Source: a virus (Duplodnaviria > Heunggongvirae > Uroviricota > Caudoviricetes). From it: a stretch of DNA of 38,344 nt. Shown one piece after another: positions 1,505 through 36,311 of the stretch. The notes beneath the pieces were generated by a model. That model saw only the letters and a program-made list of their open reading frames with translations, ran no database searches and was not told the origin of the DNA. Position numbers and translations under genes: made by a program. Position 1 is the stretch's first letter. The number at the start of each line of letters is the position of its first letter. The stretch lies in IMG/VR virus record IMGVR_UViG_2740892016_000005. One strand, written 5' to 3'.

Positions 1505-1993
1505 ATGAGTCTTTTGAATGACGTTCAGAAATTCATTGAAGCCCATCCGGGGTGTACTTCCGGAGACATTGCGGATGCTTTTGCAGGTTACTCACGGCAG
1601 CGCGTTCTGCAGTCAGCAAGCAAGTTACGTCAGAGTGGTCGTGTGGCTCACCGTTGTGAAGGGGATACACGCAGACATTTCCCGCGCCTGACTGAGAGAG
1701 CGCAGGAGGCGGAACCGCAACCAGTTCGTGAAACCAGACCTGTGCGCAATTTCTATGTCGGCACTAACGACCCGCGGGAGATTTTGTGCCTGACCCGCCA
1801 GGCTGAAGAACTGGAGTCCAGGGGCTTATACCGTCGTGCTGCAACCGTGTGGATGGCGGCATTCCGTGAAAGCCACTCCCAGCCAGAACGAAACAATTTT
1901 CTGGCGCGTCGTGAGCGGTGCTTACGGAAAAGCAGCAAGCGCGCTGCATCGGGTGAAGAGTGGTATCTGTCAGGGAATTACGTGGGGGCTTAA
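1505..1993 (+). CDS. Putative transcriptional regulator with PerC-like C-terminal motif
   Basis: ORF 1499..1993 trimmed to ATG 1505 (RBS gggggtga; GTG at 1499 overlaps the upstream stop). Motif LESRGLYRRAATVWMAAF resembles the PerC/Pch-family signature as recalled from memory; the N-terminal region looks winged-helix-like. Confidence 0.5.
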   Translation: MSLLNDVQKFIEAHPGCTSGDIADAFAGYSRQRVLQSASKLRQSGRVAHRCEGDTRRHFPRLTERAQEAEPQPVRETRPVRNFYVGTNDPREILCLTRQAEELESRGLYRRAATVWMAAFRESHSQPERNNFLARRERCLRKSSKRAASGEEWYLSGNYVGA

Positions 1994-2646
1994 TGAGTAA
2001 TAAATATTGCCAGGCGCTGGTGGAGCTGCGGAACAAACCAGCCCATGAACTGAAGGAAGTGGGCGATCAGTGGCGCACGCCGGACAACATTTTCTGGGGA
2101 ATTAACACCCTGTTTGGCCCGTTTGTTCTGGATCTGTTTACTGACGGTGATAACGCCAAATGTGCCGCGTATTACACGGCGGAAGATAACGCGCTGGCGC
2201 ATGACTGGTCAGAACGTCTTGCGGAGCTTAAAGGTGCTGCCTTTGGTAATCCCCCATACAGCCGCGCCAGTCAGCATGAGGGGCAATACATCACCGGCAT
2301 GCGTTACATCATGAAACATGCCAGTGCCATGCGTGATAAGGGCGGGCGCTATGTTTTCCTGATCAAAGCTGCCACCAGCGAAGTGTGGTGGCCGGAAGAT
2401 GCGGACCATATTGCTTTTATTCGCGGGCGTATTGGTTTTGAACTGCCTGCCTGGTTTATCCCGAAGGATGAGAAGCAGGTGCCGACAGGCGCTTTCTTCG
2501 CTGGTGCTATTGCTGTTTTCGACAAGACCTGGAAGGGACCGGCAATCAGCTACATCGGGCGCGATGAACTTGAGGCATGTGGTGAAGCCTTTCTGGTGCA
2601 GGTTCGCCAGCAGGCAGAAAAACTGGTCAGGGAGATGGCGGCATGA
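1993..2646 (+). CDS. Phage Dam-like DNA N6-adenine methyltransferase
   Basis: ATG 1993 overlaps the upstream TAA; ORF track extends to 1960. NPPY catalytic motif (GNPPYS); overall resemblance to phage Dam family proteins of lambdoid nin regions. Confidence 0.8.
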   Translation: MSNKYCQALVELRNKPAHELKEVGDQWRTPDNIFWGINTLFGPFVLDLFTDGDNAKCAAYYTAEDNALAHDWSERLAELKGAAFGNPPYSRASQHEGQYITGMRYIMKHASAMRDKGGRYVFLIKAATSEVWWPEDADHIAFIRGRIGFELPAWFIPKDEKQVPTGAFFAGAIAVFDKTWKGPAISYIGRDELEACGEAFLVQVRQQAEKLVREMAA

Positions 2647-5198: not shown

Positions 5199-5570
5199 AT
5201 GCGTGATATTCAAATGGTTCTTGAACGTTGGGGGGCATGGGCGGCTAATAATCATGAGGATGTGACCTGGTCGTCCATTGCTGCCGGTTTTAAGGGATTA
5301 CTTCCTTCAAAAGTAAAATCCCGTCCGCAATGTTGTGACGATGACGCGATGATCATTTGCGGGTGCATGGCCCGTCTGAAAAAGAACAACAGCGATTTGC
5401 ACGATTTATTAGTAGATTATTATGTAGGTGGTATGACGTTTATGGCGCTTGCCCGTAAACATGGGCGTTCTGATTGCTGGGTTGGGCGCTTATTGCAAAA
5501 GGCAGAAGGCATCATTGAAGGTATGTTGATAATGTTAGAAATAGAATTGGAAATGGACTCAAATATCTAG
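5199..5570 (+). CDS. Q: Late-gene antiterminator Q (phage 21/82-type)
   Basis: ORF 5184..5570 trimmed to ATG 5199 (RBS ggagga). Product [57 protein letters not shown]... matches Q proteins of E. coli lambdoid prophages as recalled; position immediately before the late region. Confidence 0.8.
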
Positions 5571-5697
5571 AAAGATATTTTATGAGTATCTGGATTTTTA
5601 ATTTGTATTGTTAGCATGAAATTAAGGAGGGTGGACTGTTTGTGCTTTATATTAATGTTTTTGTGGGGATTTAATAACCACTGATTTATTTGAGGGT

Positions 5698-5735
5698 GGC
5701 GCTAATGTACAAGGTTTTTAGTAATTAGCGCCTGC
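5698..5735 (+). promoter_or_regulatory. Perfect 9-bp inverted repeat followed by a T-rich tract; candidate tR'-like terminator or protein-binding site
   Basis: GGCGCTAAT ...17 nt... ATTAGCGCC, then TGCTGGTTTGTTATTTTATTTTGC; lies ~130-165 nt downstream of Q. Confidence 0.3.
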
Positions 5736-5742
5736 TGGTTTG

Positions 5743-7194
5743 TTATTTTATTTTGCTTACTATATTTGTAATAAGTGGGTCAAATTTCTCATCAATAATT
5801 TCAATATATTTTTTTATTGCTAAAGTTCTAATTACTTCCTCCTCACATTCTGCTTCTTTAGCAATTGCTTGAGTGTAATTGTGATGATCACTAATCCCTT
5901 CCTTTTTTATTAACCAATCAAAATCAATATGATACTCCTTGTAGAGGAATTTTTTTACTTCCTCATGTTGAAATACTTCTACTTCTGGTGGCCTATTGCC
6001 AGGGAAAGAAAATAAATCATCTTTAATGTTTTCTCCAACATCTGCATCTCTTACGGCAATAACATTAAGGCCTGCTTTCTTGAATACCTCGACTGCTTGT
6101 CGGACTGCATCTTTATCTCCAATATCAGTGATTTGAATGGATTTAAGAATGTCTCTCCGCTTTGCTCTAATTACTTCACTAAGTAAAACTTTTGCAAACT
6201 GGTCTTCTACGCAAATATGCAGCCCTTTAAACTGCCCATCAGACAGTATTGATCTCACATGAGTTGTTGAAATTCCATCTTTGATATAGACACCAGTCTG
6301 ATCTCTAATAAGTAATTTTCGTGCATCAGGAGGTAAAGCATTTAATATCACACTTGAGTGTGTTGATAATATTATTTGATGTTTTCTACGTTGACATACT
6401 TCCATTAAATATTTTGCAAATTCATACTGTGCGCTTTCATGAAGAGATGTTTCTGGTTCTTCTAGTACGAAAAGACTTTGCTCTGGAGCTGTTTCAAGCA
6501 TATCAACCGTATAAAGAACTCTTCCTTCGCCAAACCCCATGTTATTTTCAGAATAAGAATACCCAAGTCTTTCAACAATACCAATTTCTGAACGACGTGC
6601 TCTATGAGAAATTCCTTGGAATGCGATATCATCATATGGATGACCTATTATTTTTGCCATCTTCAATATTACTGAATGGTCGACGCTTCTTCTCTCTGTT
6701 AAATCAAAGTCTTTACCGCCATAAACACTTATATCTCTACGTTCTACTTTTGGAATATAGACAGTAAAACCAATGTAAAAACAGTGTCTTTCTGGTTGTC
6801 TTTTATATCCAGACCAAGAAGACTTTATGCGAGTGACAGTCACATCTTGTGTTTTCGTTGAATCATTTGTTTCATATTTATAAATGACACTGGCGTCATT
6901 ATCGAAAGGGGCTGGATCGGCTTTAGATACAGGGAAAAAATCTTTAATATATAATCTCTTATATTCACGGGCTGTAACTGGTTTTTTATATGCGCATATT
7001 GCTAACTGCCCAAGAGTGCTTTTCCCAGCGCCGTTTAGCCCTGATATTGCAGTTACCGGAAAATTTATATTTAATGTTAGTTTTTTTATTCCTCGAAATC
7101 CATTTATCTCTAGACTTTTAATTACGGAGCCAAAGTTTGAGTATCTATTTTTATCAAAGTACATGCATTTTAGTATATTTTTTATGTCTGACAT
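5743..7194 (-). CDS. ABC-type (AAA_15/21-like) ATPase with C-terminal TOPRIM-like domain; OLD/PARIS-like candidate defence nuclease
   Basis: 483 aa. Walker A GLNGAGKST; Walker B/D-loop SLFVLEEPETSLH; H-loop ILSTHSS; C-terminal acidic motifs LHICVEDQ and VIAVRDADVGE consistent with TOPRIM. Gene is AT-rich relative to flanks; RBS aggaaag; own promoter-like signals. Confidence 0.85.
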   Translation of the reverse strand: MSDIKNILKCMYFDKNRYSNFGSVIKSLEINGFRGIKKLTLNINFPVTAISGLNGAGKSTLGQLAICAYKKPVTAREYKRLYIKDFFPVSKADPAPFDNDASVIYKYETNDSTKTQDVTVTRIKSSWSGYKRQPERHCFYIGFTVYIPKVERRDISVYGGKDFDLTERRSVDHSVILKMAKIIGHPYDDIAFQGISHRARRSEIGIVERLGYSYSENNMGFGEGRVLYTVDMLETAPEQSLFVLEEPETSLHESAQYEFAKYLMEVCQRRKHQIILSTHSSVILNALPPDARKLLIRDQTGVYIKDGISTTHVRSILSDGQFKGLHICVEDQFAKVLLSEVIRAKRRDILKSIQITDIGDKDAVRQAVEVFKKAGLNVIAVRDADVGENIKDDLFSFPGNRPPEVEVFQHEEVKKFLYKEYHIDFDWLIKKEGISDHHNYTQAIAKEAECEEEVIRTLAIKKYIEIIDEKFDPLITNIVSKIK

Positions 7195-7244
7195 TTTTTA
7201 TCTTTCCTGATATGAATGAGAGTTATCTTTAGAAAAACAATAAA

Positions 7245-7273
7245 TTTATAACATTTAGAGATGTATTCATCAA
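7245..7273 (-). promoter_or_regulatory. Sigma70-like promoter for the ATPase gene
   Basis: On the minus strand: -35 TTGATG, 17-bp spacer, -10 TATAAA, about 45 nt upstream of the ATG at 7194. Confidence 0.4.
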
Positions 7274-7458
7274 TGATTGGGTAAATATCGTGCATTTGTT
7301 GTTTTAAAATCAACCAAGAATGATTTTTATAATTATGTCAATTGCCTTATTATCAATATGGTAATGTTTTCTCAATCTAATTATTGCGGGGAATATATTA
7401 TTTACAATCGTAAATAATCAGATATGCTCTCAAGAGTGGTTACTTCGCCACACAACTT

Positions 7459-7484
7459 AAACCCGCCGTCGAGCGGGTTTTTTT
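7459..7484 (+). terminator. Intrinsic terminator
   Basis: AAACCCGC-cgtcga-GCGGGTTT stem-loop (8-bp stem) followed by a run of 7 T. Confidence 0.6.
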
Positions 7485-7606
7485 GTACCTGTAAACCTGG
7501 TGCAGTACGGTAAACACGCTGGTGGTCGTGAATACTGACTTTTTATCTTGCTGGCTTTTTAGACAAGAGTTATTGGTATGTCATGTTAACCAGAAGGAAA
7601 AAAGAC

Positions 7607-7801
7607 ATGCTAAAACAGCAAGATATGACAGAAACGGCGAAAGTTGTTTTTAATGAATTAAGCATCGAACCGGCAACAGTCGGGGAGATTGCACAAAACA
7701 CATATCTTTCACGCGAACGCTGTCAGTTAATACTGACCCAGTTGGTTATGGCGGGGCTGGCAGATTACCAGTTCGGCTGTTACAGACGCCTTCAGCAATG
7801 A
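7607..7801 (+). CDS. Small hypothetical protein, possibly winged-helix
   Basis: ORF 7583..7801 trimmed to ATG 7607 (RBS aagga); 64 aa; no motif firmly recognised. Confidence 0.4.
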   Translation: MLKQQDMTETAKVVFNELSIEPATVGEIAQNTYLSRERCQLILTQLVMAGLADYQFGCYRRLQQ

Positions 7802-7950
7802 AGGACTTTTAATTTGTGAAAATGGGCGGCTGGTGGGTGTTGGTAGCACCTGCCAGCCATTCGCTCATGCTTACTGGTCACAAGCGAACCACGGCCCACT
7901 GCTTTAGCGCAAAAGCAGAGTGAGCCTACCAGAGTTACGCTTACTGATCC

Positions 7951-34532: not shown

Positions 34533-36311
34533 TCACCCCCTAGATCTTGCTGAAAGCTCATCTTTATAAGCCATTCTTGGCGTGTAAAAATTATGGAATG
34601 CCTTACCTATTGCACCATTGAAAAGCTTAAGCAATGGTTTATTGCTCCCTGCGTTTAAAATATTCCTCATTGCTATACCAGGGTATGGATCTATGTAATA
34701 TATTTGTTTGATCCCTAATTGATACGCTTTTTTAGAACATAATTCACAAGGGCTTGCTGTTGTGAACAAAAAACCATTCTGTATACCAACGCCACCATAC
34801 TTAGATATTTGTAAGAAAGCATTCTCTTCAGCATGAAGTGATCTTGTAAAAACTTGATTAGCGTTAGATTTTATTTTGTCAATAATAGCAAACTCATCAT
34901 CATTTAACTTATGTTCGACCCGTAGATCTTCTTTGTATTTATCATCAAGGATATTATTCCATTCTGTTTTAAAACAAAATGGAGCTCTCATTCCTTTATT
35001 TTTAACATCTAAAAAAATAATCTTAGTGCTATCTATTTTTCGAATGAAACTATTTTCGTTCTTTTCGAATTCAGAGTAAGCAATATCATCAATCCCCTCA
35101 GACAAATCAAACCTATCCCTTAAAGAGCAAGGAACTTGACCACTTGGTACATCATTCCAACCAATAGACTTAATTGAAAATGAACTATCAGATACTGCAG
35201 CGCCTACCTGCCTGGATATACAACCAGAGTTCAACTTAGCTGTATATGCTATCTGCATGCAACGTTCAACATTTGATGGAGTTATTATACCAGGACGCTT
35301 CATTAATGAAGTGAATTTAATTAATTGATTAGCCAATCCTGAGTACCGACAAACAACATTTTCCTCTTCCGGATTCTCAACATAGATGTCTGATATTTCT
35401 AAACAAGACTGTATATTCTGATATATATATGATGACTTCTCATCCAAAGATGATTTACGGTATTCTTTTGCATCAATATCTTTTATCTCAGCATCAGTTA
35501 AACCTTGTTCTCTAAGCCTTTGATGCCTGTAATGCTCTTCTGTAGAAACAGCCATTAAATAAAATGATGAGTATCTATCTTGGAAGTATGTTGCTTCGAA
35601 CGGATTTCTTATAGCATCAATAACTATATAAATAGGTTTCTTTTCTCCAGTTTTTGTGTTCTTTTCTTTTGCTAAGGTTCTTAATCTTTGAATTATATCA
35701 TTTATTTTTTTAGGAAGAAAAAAACCATGGAAATCATCACTAAATGAACTGTCATGGTACATCCCACTAGATCTATAATTATTACCTATAGCTTGATATA
35801 GCTTTATATAGTCAGCCTTGTTCTTAAATATGGATTTAATTTGTGTATTCGCTTTTATTAGATATTCATTTATGAATTTTATCTTATCATCTATATCATG
35901 ATCAGAGCTTTCATCTTTAGCTTTAATTTCTTTTAGTATAGATTCAAGATCATTAACTGTTGACTCTAGGACTCTTTGGTCATTACCTAACTCCGTCACT
36001 TCCCGAATAAATTTATTCAGCTTACCATCAAAGTCCTTTGATAAACACAATGTCAGTATGGAACTTGCTTGTATTTTTATAAATGGAACCCATGACACGG
36101 AAAAATATTTAAATAGAACCCGCTCTTTTCTTTCTTCATTCGACTTAGGGTAATCACCGTTAAATAGAGAATGCTTTATCTCACTTGATTCTGATGACAG
36201 TATATTAGAAACTGTTGAACAGCCTGACCCCGTCCTCCCTGTTAATCCTATAATTAGGAAATCATCATCTTCACTATATATTTTACTCAGTGCGTCATTA
36301 TAAAAACCCAT
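34533..36311 (-). CDS. P-loop NTPase / dCMP-deaminase fusion protein; AvcD/DCD-like candidate nucleotide-depletion defence
   Basis: 592 aa. N-terminal deviant P-loop GLTGRTGSGCST; C-terminal deaminase motifs ERCMQIAYTAKLNSGCISRQVGAAV, HAEENA and PCELC (zinc ligands). AT-rich; RBS ggag; own promoter-like -10. Confidence 0.9.
   Translation of the reverse strand: MGFYNDALSKIYSEDDDFLIIGLTGRTGSGCSTVSNILSSESSEIKHSLFNGDYPKSNEERKERVLFKYFSVSWVPFIKIQASSILTLCLSKDFDGKLNKFIREVTELGNDQRVLESTVNDLESILKEIKAKDESSDHDIDDKIKFINEYLIKANTQIKSIFKNKADYIKLYQAIGNNYRSSGMYHDSSFSDDFHGFFLPKKINDIIQRLRTLAKEKNTKTGEKKPIYIVIDAIRNPFEATYFQDRYSSFYLMAVSTEEHYRHQRLREQGLTDAEIKDIDAKEYRKSSLDEKSSYIYQNIQSCLEISDIYVENPEEENVVCRYSGLANQLIKFTSLMKRPGIITPSNVERCMQIAYTAKLNSGCISRQVGAAVSDSSFSIKSIGWNDVPSGQVPCSLRDRFDLSEGIDDIAYSEFEKNENSFIRKIDSTKIIFLDVKNKGMRAPFCFKTEWNNILDDKYKEDLRVEHKLNDDEFAIIDKIKSNANQVFTRSLHAEENAFLQISKYGGVGIQNGFLFTTASPCELCSKKAYQLGIKQIYYIDPYPGIAMRNILNAGSNKPLLKLFNGAIGKAFHNFYTPRMAYKDELSARSRG

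Follow-up and report, generated by a model that had tools for sequence, protein, structure and literature searches.

The locus considered here raises the question of whether one AT-rich gene, lodged on the minus strand between the antiterminator gene and the lysis genes of a prophage, can by itself serve as an anti-phage defence. The gene occupies positions 5743 to 7194 of a 38,344-nucleotide stretch of Caudoviricetes DNA, here called the window (IMG/VR record IMGVR_UViG_2740892016_000005). A preliminary description, made from the sequence alone, took its 483-residue product for a candidate defence nuclease with an ATP-binding cassette (ABC) ATPase head and a TOPRIM-like C-terminal region, after the domain logic of P2 Old, Gabija GajA and PARIS AriA/AriB. 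Judged by the sequence comparisons below, its product is quite probably a defence nuclease of the HEC-04 family that acts against phages as one protein. The gene travels as a moron in a DLP12/lambda-like prophage of E. coli, where it occupies the variable slot that separates Q from the probable late promoter. The product is a distant member of a family that is already catalogued and validated, and it does not represent a new kind of system.

A distant member of the HEC-04 family

HEC-04 is entry PDLC04149 of PADLOC-DB, and its tested representative is a 490-residue protein of E. coli MOD1-EC5853 (WP_044502283.1; bioRxiv 10.1101/2024.01.29.577857). In the presence of this protein, several coliphages form orders of magnitude fewer plaques, and its induction is toxic (Payne et al., bioRxiv 10.1101/2024.01.29.577857), and the defence is abolished by the substitution K62A or by the triple substitution E319A/D375A/D377A (bioRxiv 10.1101/2024.01.29.577857). 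Nothing in the searchable literature was found to rename HEC-04 or to dissect its mechanism. A second studied relative is IbfA, borne by the IncI1 plasmids R64 and pUA1135 and assigned by PADLOC to HEC-04, which reduces burst size in the manner of abortive infection (PMC12111858). In cells with IbfA, phage DNA is injected and replicated as usual, and late gene expression, burst size and cell viability all fall, without lysis (PMC12111858).

The PADLOC model of HEC-04 matches the 483-residue protein with an E value of 3.9e-47 and 159 bits, aligning residues 5–410 to positions 7–403 of the 494 in the model; the next PADLOC family is 25 orders of magnitude weaker. When a profile of the protein's close clade is aligned by hhalign to the tested HEC-04 protein, the two are matched over 449 columns (residues 10–480 to 14–487 of 490) with a probability of 99.9% and an E value of 3.7e-33, and a direct BLASTP comparison gives 27% identity at 2e-29. 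The residues essential in HEC-04 are found at the aligned positions, K58 pairing with K62, E330 with E319, D383 with D375 and D385 with D377. By sequence the protein is therefore a HEC-04 family member, and it has the traits of that family: a single gene, an ABC head with K58 and a fused TOPRIM triad.

The reading frame is complete, as first described, with all the motifs then quoted lying at sensible positions. With 736 homologues among the 5.8 billion proteins searched, it is a real gene and not a chance open reading frame (ORF). The best 120 of the 736 share 57–100% identity and are mostly 482–484 residues long, with a few truncated. Sources among the homologues listed include Klebsiella, Vibrio, Pseudomonas, Aeromonas, Shewanella, Methylomonas, Acidithiobacillus and many metagenomes. 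RefSeq holds the product as WP_032083250.1, 'ATP-dependent nuclease'.

Domain architecture and predicted structure

The N-terminal half of the protein is recognised by Pfam AAA_15 (2e-19) and AAA_21 (3e-14), and also by AAA_23 and SMC_N, as expected of the ABC-type head that had been proposed. NCBIfam yields nothing above any curated cutoff, and the strongly matching phage family PHROG 3940 (1.5e-77) has no annotated function. The TOPRIM domain is evident only from defence-specific hidden Markov models (HMMs) and from structure prediction. Among the profile searches put forward in the preliminary description, those with AAA_15 and AAA_21 turned out as anticipated; those with Pfam Toprim and DUF4435 gave no significant match, either to the full protein or to the isolated C-terminal domain.

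Structure prediction was the other check set beforehand, with the lack of a TOPRIM fold named as part of the outcome that would speak against a nuclease. Because the orientation of the domains lowers whole-chain scores, residues 305–483 were modelled alone. The isolated model is confident (predicted local distance difference test score, pLDDT, 92.2; predicted template modelling score 0.85) and has the TOPRIM topology beta1-Glu-helix-beta2-helix-beta3-DxD-beta4 followed by a helical bundle, so the fold in question is present in the prediction. The motifs CVEDQ and RDADVGE, which had been called TOPRIM-like by eye, supply the Glu and the DxD of this topology. With the full-length model, the top Foldseek matches are Thermus scotoductus (Ts) OLD (5.5e-14), GajA, retron Eco8 and PtuA, and ABC/SMC heads match as well. 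Ts OLD is also the best match among Protein Data Bank (PDB) sequences (6p74; 5.8e-7, or 1.6e-11 with the clade profile). PDB matches of the clade HMM within the TOPRIM region proved to be de novo TIM-barrel designs and were discarded as spurious. The ATPase head carries an insert at residues 97–215, predicted as mostly beta-strand with one helix in a model whose pLDDT falls below 50 in parts.

Conservation and spread of the family

To follow the active sites through the family, 56 diverse members were aligned, extending down to 19% identity, with HEC-04 and two plasmid proteins among them. Invariance across all 56 is confined to the columns G52, N54, G55, K58, G222, E223, E246, H252, H279, E330, D331, D383 and E404; D385 is Asp in 48 of the 56 and Asn or Glu in six more. 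These residues fall in the ATPase motifs and the TOPRIM site (Table 1), and E404, which follows the last TOPRIM strand, is probably an additional acidic residue of the active site, judging from its invariance.

Scanned exhaustively with HMMER, 1.84 billion cluster representatives yielded 128 clusters at E <= 1e-30 and 971 at E <= 1e-10; the best 150 listed are mostly 470–530 residues long and align over nearly their full length. Members of the close clade are 57–78% identical across Enterobacterales, Vibrio, Pseudomonas, Aeromonas, Shewanella, Methylomonas and Acidithiobacillus, at constant length and with long invariant stretches, which implies strong purifying selection despite horizontal transfer. 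Deposited phage genomes contain a single distant relative, in Burkholderia phiE094 (29% identity).

Two of the best-conserved segments of the protein lie at residues 68–92 (6919..6993, minus strand) and at GFTVYIPKVERRD (residues 142–154; 6733..6771, minus strand), the latter invariant in a 30-sequence alignment of the clade. Both score under 50 in pLDDT in the AlphaFold prediction, and both are much less conserved in HEC-04 and IbfA. These segments may form an oligomer interface, or a surface that binds nucleic acid or a trigger.

The family is also represented on plasmids. A 521-residue 'AAA family ATPase' (WP_000741348.1) is encoded by the IncF plasmid NZ_CP097214.1 (2465..4030 of the retrieved stretch) and by about 550 other plasmid records, and is common on conjugative plasmids of E. 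coli, Salmonella and Klebsiella. This protein, another ATPase–TOPRIM member of the HEC-04 type and distinct from IbfA, matches the HEC-04 model at 3.9e-32 and has VED and DGD motifs.

The cassette, its slot and the carrier prophage

The gene lies in an island of low GC content, 0.31–0.37 over about 5500–7750 as opposed to 0.48–0.58 in the flanks. Over 5531–7400 the GC content is 0.328, against 0.51 in the remaining window, in keeping with the foreign composition first remarked upon. BLAST comparison with two sister prophages that carry the same quuD-type Q defines the borders: homology ends at 5530–5557, in the 3' end of Q, and restarts in both at exactly 7401. To the right, the lysis genes follow (holin from 9071, lysozyme from 9286). 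The slot had been called a Q-to-lysis moron hotspot, and its contents in related prophages bear this out. DLP12-type prophages hold a minus-strand porin gene (nmpC/ompC) there, and PhiR40_1 holds a different minus-strand gene of 148 residues. Among 5,426 complete E. coli genomes, 11 have the cassette with the nuclease gene, in every case within this prophage setting.

The sequence immediately to the right of the cassette, 7401–7480, is probably the Q-dependent late promoter pR' with its terminator tR'. It contains a promoter-like site and a hairpin, AAACCCGC-CGTCGA-GCGGGTTT, followed by a T-run. Homology to relatives with the same Q begins at 7401, whereas SfV, which has a different type of Q and no moron, matches only from its annotated rho-independent terminator onward (window ~7460). 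Together with the promoter-like site and the hairpin, this suggests that the segment is the module cognate to this Q. Only the right-hand backbone is shared with the window by Stx2c phages, cdtI, phiP27 and SfV. If 7401–7480 is indeed pR' and tR', the cassette lies between Q and pR', and morons of this phage group insert at that point, outside the late operon. No tRNA genes, of the kind found between Q and lysis in Stx phages, were detected in the window, that region included.

Table 1. Coordinates of the nuclease gene, its domains and motifs, and the surrounding cassette (window numbering)
Feature	Position	Strand	Remarks
Complete ORF, 483 residues + stop	5743..7194	-	ATG start; HEC-04-family ABC ATPase–TOPRIM, single gene
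Shine-Dalgarno sequence AGGAAA	7203..7208	-	AGGA 10–13 nt upstream of ATG, read from sequence
ABC-type ATPase head, residues ~25–300	6295..7122	-	N-terminal; from Pfam, model and Foldseek; mostly beta-strand insert (predicted) between Walker A and signature
Walker A GLNGAGKST, residues 52–60	7015..7041	-	K58 invariant
Equivalent of ABC signature motif, MGFGEGR, residues 219–225	6520..6540	-	G222, E223 invariant; aligns with AriA 'GERQ' region
Walker B / D-loop FVLEEPETSLH, residues 242–252	6439..6471	-	E246, H252 invariant
H-loop STHS, residues 277–280	6355..6366	-	H279 invariant
TOPRIM domain (predicted), residues ~324–410	5965..6225	-	beta1 325–329, Glu, helix, beta2 353–357, helix, beta3 378–382, DxD, beta4 394–396
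TOPRIM catalytic Glu-Asp, E330 and D331 (CVED; CVEDQ, residues 328–332)	6202..6207	-	invariant, 56/56
TOPRIM DxD, D383-A-D385 (RDADVGE, residues 382–388)	6040..6048	-	D383 invariant; D385 Asp in 48/56
E404 in 'FPG..PPE.EV', after beta4	5983..5985	-	invariant
C-terminal helical bundle, residues 411–483	5746..5964	-	collinear with tail of tested HEC-04; DHH (H438) nearly invariant
Swappable AT-rich moron cassette, ~1.85 kb	5558..7400		33% GC; homology breaks against sister prophages
quuD-type antiterminator gene Q	5199..5570	+	left border of cassette
Conserved backbone module	7401..7480	+	promoter-like site 7401–7428, strong intrinsic terminator 7459–7480; probable pR' and tR'
Two weak sigma-70-like sites, 7356–7329 and 7407–7380	7329..7407	-	candidate own promoter; lead only

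The prophage has other cargo. A second AT-rich ORF, 34533..36311 on the minus strand (592 residues, 32.8% GC), lies beyond the tail-fibre genes and is a 'hypothetical protein' in RefSeq (WP_061089084.1). Its product matches the PADLOC dCTP-deaminase ('dCTPase') model with an E value of 2.2e-127 and Pfam dCMP_cyt_deam_1 at 2.5e-12. By virtue of this match the prophage appears, at the level of sequence, to hold one defence moron at each of the classical moron sites, the two being unrelated. The gene for a fused prohead protease (ClpP-like) and major capsid protein, 15318..17345 on the plus strand, is flagged in RefSeq as a pseudogene with an 'internal stop'. Its in-frame translation shows a terminal stop only, within an uninterrupted ORF of 15126..17345; the flag may be an annotation artefact, and the prophage may therefore be less defective than annotated. 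Two DNA methyltransferases are encoded on the plus strand, an N6-adenine enzyme in the Nin-type region (1993..2646) and a 350-residue enzyme in the interval between a small ORF and the holin gene (7951..9003). Both belong to the conserved backbone and are unlinked to the nuclease cassette.

A gene without a conserved partner

The cassette contains no second gene. The methylase at 7951..9003 and the small ORF at 7607..7801 were considered as partners and rejected, because relatives that lack the nuclease gene have both; they are conserved phage backbone. A 72-residue ORF considered in the same search has no Pfam match. Across the E. coli, Klebsiella, Pseudomonas, Aeromonas and metagenomic contexts of the homologues, no neighbour is conserved, and the notion of a single gene without a partner survives this comparison. 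A GajB-type UvrD-like helicase gene was found neither in the cassette and its flanks nor beside the homologues examined. A reverse transcriptase gene is likewise absent from the neighbourhood of the prophage gene and of the homologues examined; for msr/msd no RNA-family search was made.

The surroundings of the homologues are varied, and many are those of defence genes. In Pseudomonas the homologues adjoin a ThsB-TIR-like gene, and in Klebsiella they form the end of a satellite or prophage remnant, which carries a HEPN gene as well. One homologue on a viral contig adjoins a type I HsdR gene and another adjoins portal and terminase genes. The Aeromonas homologues lie in an island bounded by an integrase gene, and a gene for a 268-residue protein with DUF3427 and an HNH endonuclease domain follows on the same strand, 13 bp after the homologue's stop. 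This gene was seen at 7468..8274 of one retrieved stretch and in four more stretches, and in no other context examined; it may be a partner peculiar to this lineage, or just another defence gene nearby. Outside E. coli, DNA homology in the contexts examined is confined to the ORF, with no detectable co-transfer of flanking DNA. Such a pattern of recurrence is the one expected of a self-sufficient, horizontally mobile defence gene.

Proposed mode of action and alternatives

In the mechanism proposed here, a promoter of its own would drive the gene in the lysogen, against the direction of phage transcription. Upon infection by another phage, the ABC head would sense a cue, as the family and the biochemistry of OLD, Gabija and PARIS suggest, and ATP binding or hydrolysis would license the TOPRIM site, probably by head-to-head dimerisation through Walker A and the signature motif. 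The licensed site, comprising E330, D383, D385 and probably E404, would cleave nucleic acid by metal-dependent phosphoryl transfer, so that phage production is blocked, possibly at the cell's cost (abortive infection). DNA is the most likely substrate, as judged from P2 Old, Ts OLD and GajA: the characterised fused OLD-type enzymes (P2 Old, Ts OLD, Bp OLD and GajA) all cut DNA.

Several observations weigh against a defence nuclease of this kind. The tested relatives are distant, with 27% identity for HEC-04 and 19–25% for the IbfA type. Pfam OLD-like_TOPRIM (PF20469) scores 13.0–14.2 bits against a cutoff of 23.2, with E values of 0.16 (full protein) and 0.064 (domain), and when the clade HMM is compared with PDB sequences the alignment is limited to the ATPase motifs. 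The full-length AlphaFold model is of moderate quality (pLDDT 75.9) and leaves conserved loops unmodelled. Foldseek ranks AriB, Bp OLD and Ts OLD first for the isolated C-terminal domain with weak scores (E 0.03–0.04, TM score 0.42–0.47). Finally, the region contains 12 sigma-70-like sites and shuffled sequence contains 10.0 +/- 3.1, no excess; promoter sites at chance level make expression of the nuclease gene in the lysogen an assumption.

The closest competitor to a DNA-cutting enzyme keeps the architecture and changes the target. The protein could be a fused PARIS-like system whose head, on detecting a phage protein, releases or activates the TOPRIM domain to cut host tRNA, or another RNA, such that translation stops and infection is aborted. 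An RNA target stays live because AriB is the best structural match and because IbfA spares phage DNA replication while late expression collapses (PMC12111858), a phenotype that fits a block of translation or RNA better than degradation of DNA. The ATPase half also matches AriA models (7.7e-19), and HEC-04 is toxic on over-expression. We nevertheless regard such a nuclease as rather unlikely, given the DNA substrates of the fused enzymes named above and the behaviour of the PARIS profiles: neither AriB nor DUF4435 finds a sequence match, even with the isolated C-terminal domain, and the PADLOC model of fused AriAB matches the ATPase part alone (residues 219–285, 3e-11). The resemblance of the C-terminal domain to AriB is one of fold only, as seen in the predicted model.

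It is far less probable that the gene is a classical Class 1 OLD, that is, a non-specific 5'-3' exonuclease which, like P2 Old, acts upon inhibition of RecBCD (lambda Gam being one inhibitor) and excludes phages of the lambdoid group. A stand-alone gene for an ABC ATPase fused to TOPRIM falls within the architecture- and context-based definition of that class, Ts OLD is the best match both in PDB sequences and in the full-length structure search, and the tested HEC-04 gene sits in the slot of P2 old, with the present gene likewise prophage-borne. The profiles point elsewhere. The PADLOC Old model, which gives P2 Old 712 bits, is not among the top matches of the 483-residue protein, the HEC-04 model is not among the 25 best listed matches of P2 Old, and the Old and OLD-like_TOPRIM profiles do not match the protein significantly. 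Aligned by hhalign to P2 Old, the clade profile covers only 147 columns, from Walker B to DxD (probability 93%). Without a match to the Old model and with no more than a partial alignment to P2 Old, the protein is no classical Old on sequence grounds. As predicted, the largely beta-strand insert of the head would differ from the dimerisation domain that Ts OLD and GajA carry inserted there, and HEC-04 gave no protection against lambda according to the authors of the IbfA study (PMC12111858).

We find it the least credible that the gene has no part in defence, and is instead a decaying or silent passenger, a repair, recombination or maintenance gene of the element itself, or a selfish gene of the addiction type. 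An AT-rich cassette could be silenced, the promoter predictions are at chance level, and the authors of the IbfA study speculate that chromosomal homologues have roles other than defence (PMC12111858). Set against this are an intact ORF with a good Shine-Dalgarno sequence and every catalytic residue conserved, strong purifying selection at constant length across orders, recurrence in defence-type neighbourhoods with homology confined to the ORF, and experimental protection against phages by the relatives HEC-04 and IbfA.

A more speculative extension of the HEC-04 reading, doubtful as a whole, is that the clade forms a functionally distinct subtype. Like AriB, its TOPRIM domain may cleave RNA or tRNA instead of DNA, and the unmodelled invariant loops at residues 68–92 and 142–161 may sense a conserved component of host or phage. 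Sensing of a conserved component would, if this view of the loops holds, account for a near-constant protein across bacterial orders. In the same scheme, read-through from the early operon upon induction could silence the opposing nuclease gene and so spare the prophage's own lytic growth.

Significance

A specialist will not be surprised by the finding, as the family is catalogued in PADLOC, one member is validated, IbfA has been studied and the gene is annotated in RefSeq. The preliminary description was right to suspect a compact or divergent family; since that family already had a name (HEC-04 in PADLOC-DB) and experimental validation, the novelty and interest of the gene were overestimated. 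Reviews of OLD nucleases leave open whether a stand-alone OLD-type protein alone gives broad defence, a question on which HEC-04 and its relatives bear and for which the present clade is a convenient second test case. The family rides the classic Q-to-lysis moron slot of lambdoid prophages, which is also the slot of nmpC and, in related phages, of Shiga toxin genes. In practice the gain is modest. It lies in improved annotation of the defence genes that prophages carry in clinical E. coli, and in a candidate with which the trigger and substrate of the family might be worked out.

Comparison with known systems

P2 Old and Ts OLD share with the prophage protein a single gene for an ABC ATPase and a TOPRIM domain with a Glu...DxD metal site, and P2 Old is in addition a lysogenic-conversion gene by which a prophage excludes other phages. 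At 586 residues P2 Old is about 100 residues longer, and the match of the prophage protein to OLD-like_TOPRIM remains below threshold. Fusion of the ABC ATPase to TOPRIM is likewise found in GajA (Class 2 OLD) and in the retron type I-B/Eco8 effector (Class 3 OLD). The PADLOC ATPase-Toprim_I-B model, for the retron type I-B effector, covers residues 238–470 (2.5e-22), and the AriA, NsnB, GajA and PtuA models are far weaker than HEC-04, touching only the ATPase motifs. In contrast with Class 2 OLD proteins, the prophage protein is shorter and, judging from its length, has no sign of the extra helical TOPRIM insert. PARIS (Class 4 OLD) follows the same domain logic, and its AriA models recognise the ATPase half; AriA and AriB are, however, separate genes, whereas the two domains are fused here.

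IbfA resembles the prophage protein as a one-protein ATPase–TOPRIM defence borne by a mobile element in a hypervariable region. An IbfA-type sequence, recognised by its length of 1557 bp and its ProQ/FinO neighbour and not by accession, aligns by hhalign with the clade profile over residues 14–359, VED motif included (probability 98.9%), and scores 141 bits on the HEC-04 model compared with 159 for the prophage protein. It differs in its length of 518 residues, about 19–25% identity, a long insertion after DxD and a plasmid location beside a ProQ/FinO gene.

HEC-04 itself is collinear with the prophage protein from end to end, with the K, E, DxD and PPE motifs identical, and is similarly carried by a prophage in a moron or defence hotspot. 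The distance between the two is seen in the modest identity and in the bit scores on the HEC-04 model, 159 against the 746 of the tested protein, and the phage range and trigger of the clade may differ. Their slots also differ, the one being the lambdoid interval between Q and the probable pR' and the other the old/tin site of P2. In E. coli 789 (NZ_CP010315.1; 6001..7473 of the retrieved stretch) the tested HEC-04 gene belongs to a P2-like prophage and is flanked by the genes for the replication endonuclease (gpA) and the portal, the same position that tin and old occupy in P2, so that HEC-04 and Old are alternative cargo of one P2 hotspot. The clade described here adds a third, unusually conserved candidate branch to the one-protein ATPase–TOPRIM defences represented by HEC-04 and IbfA.

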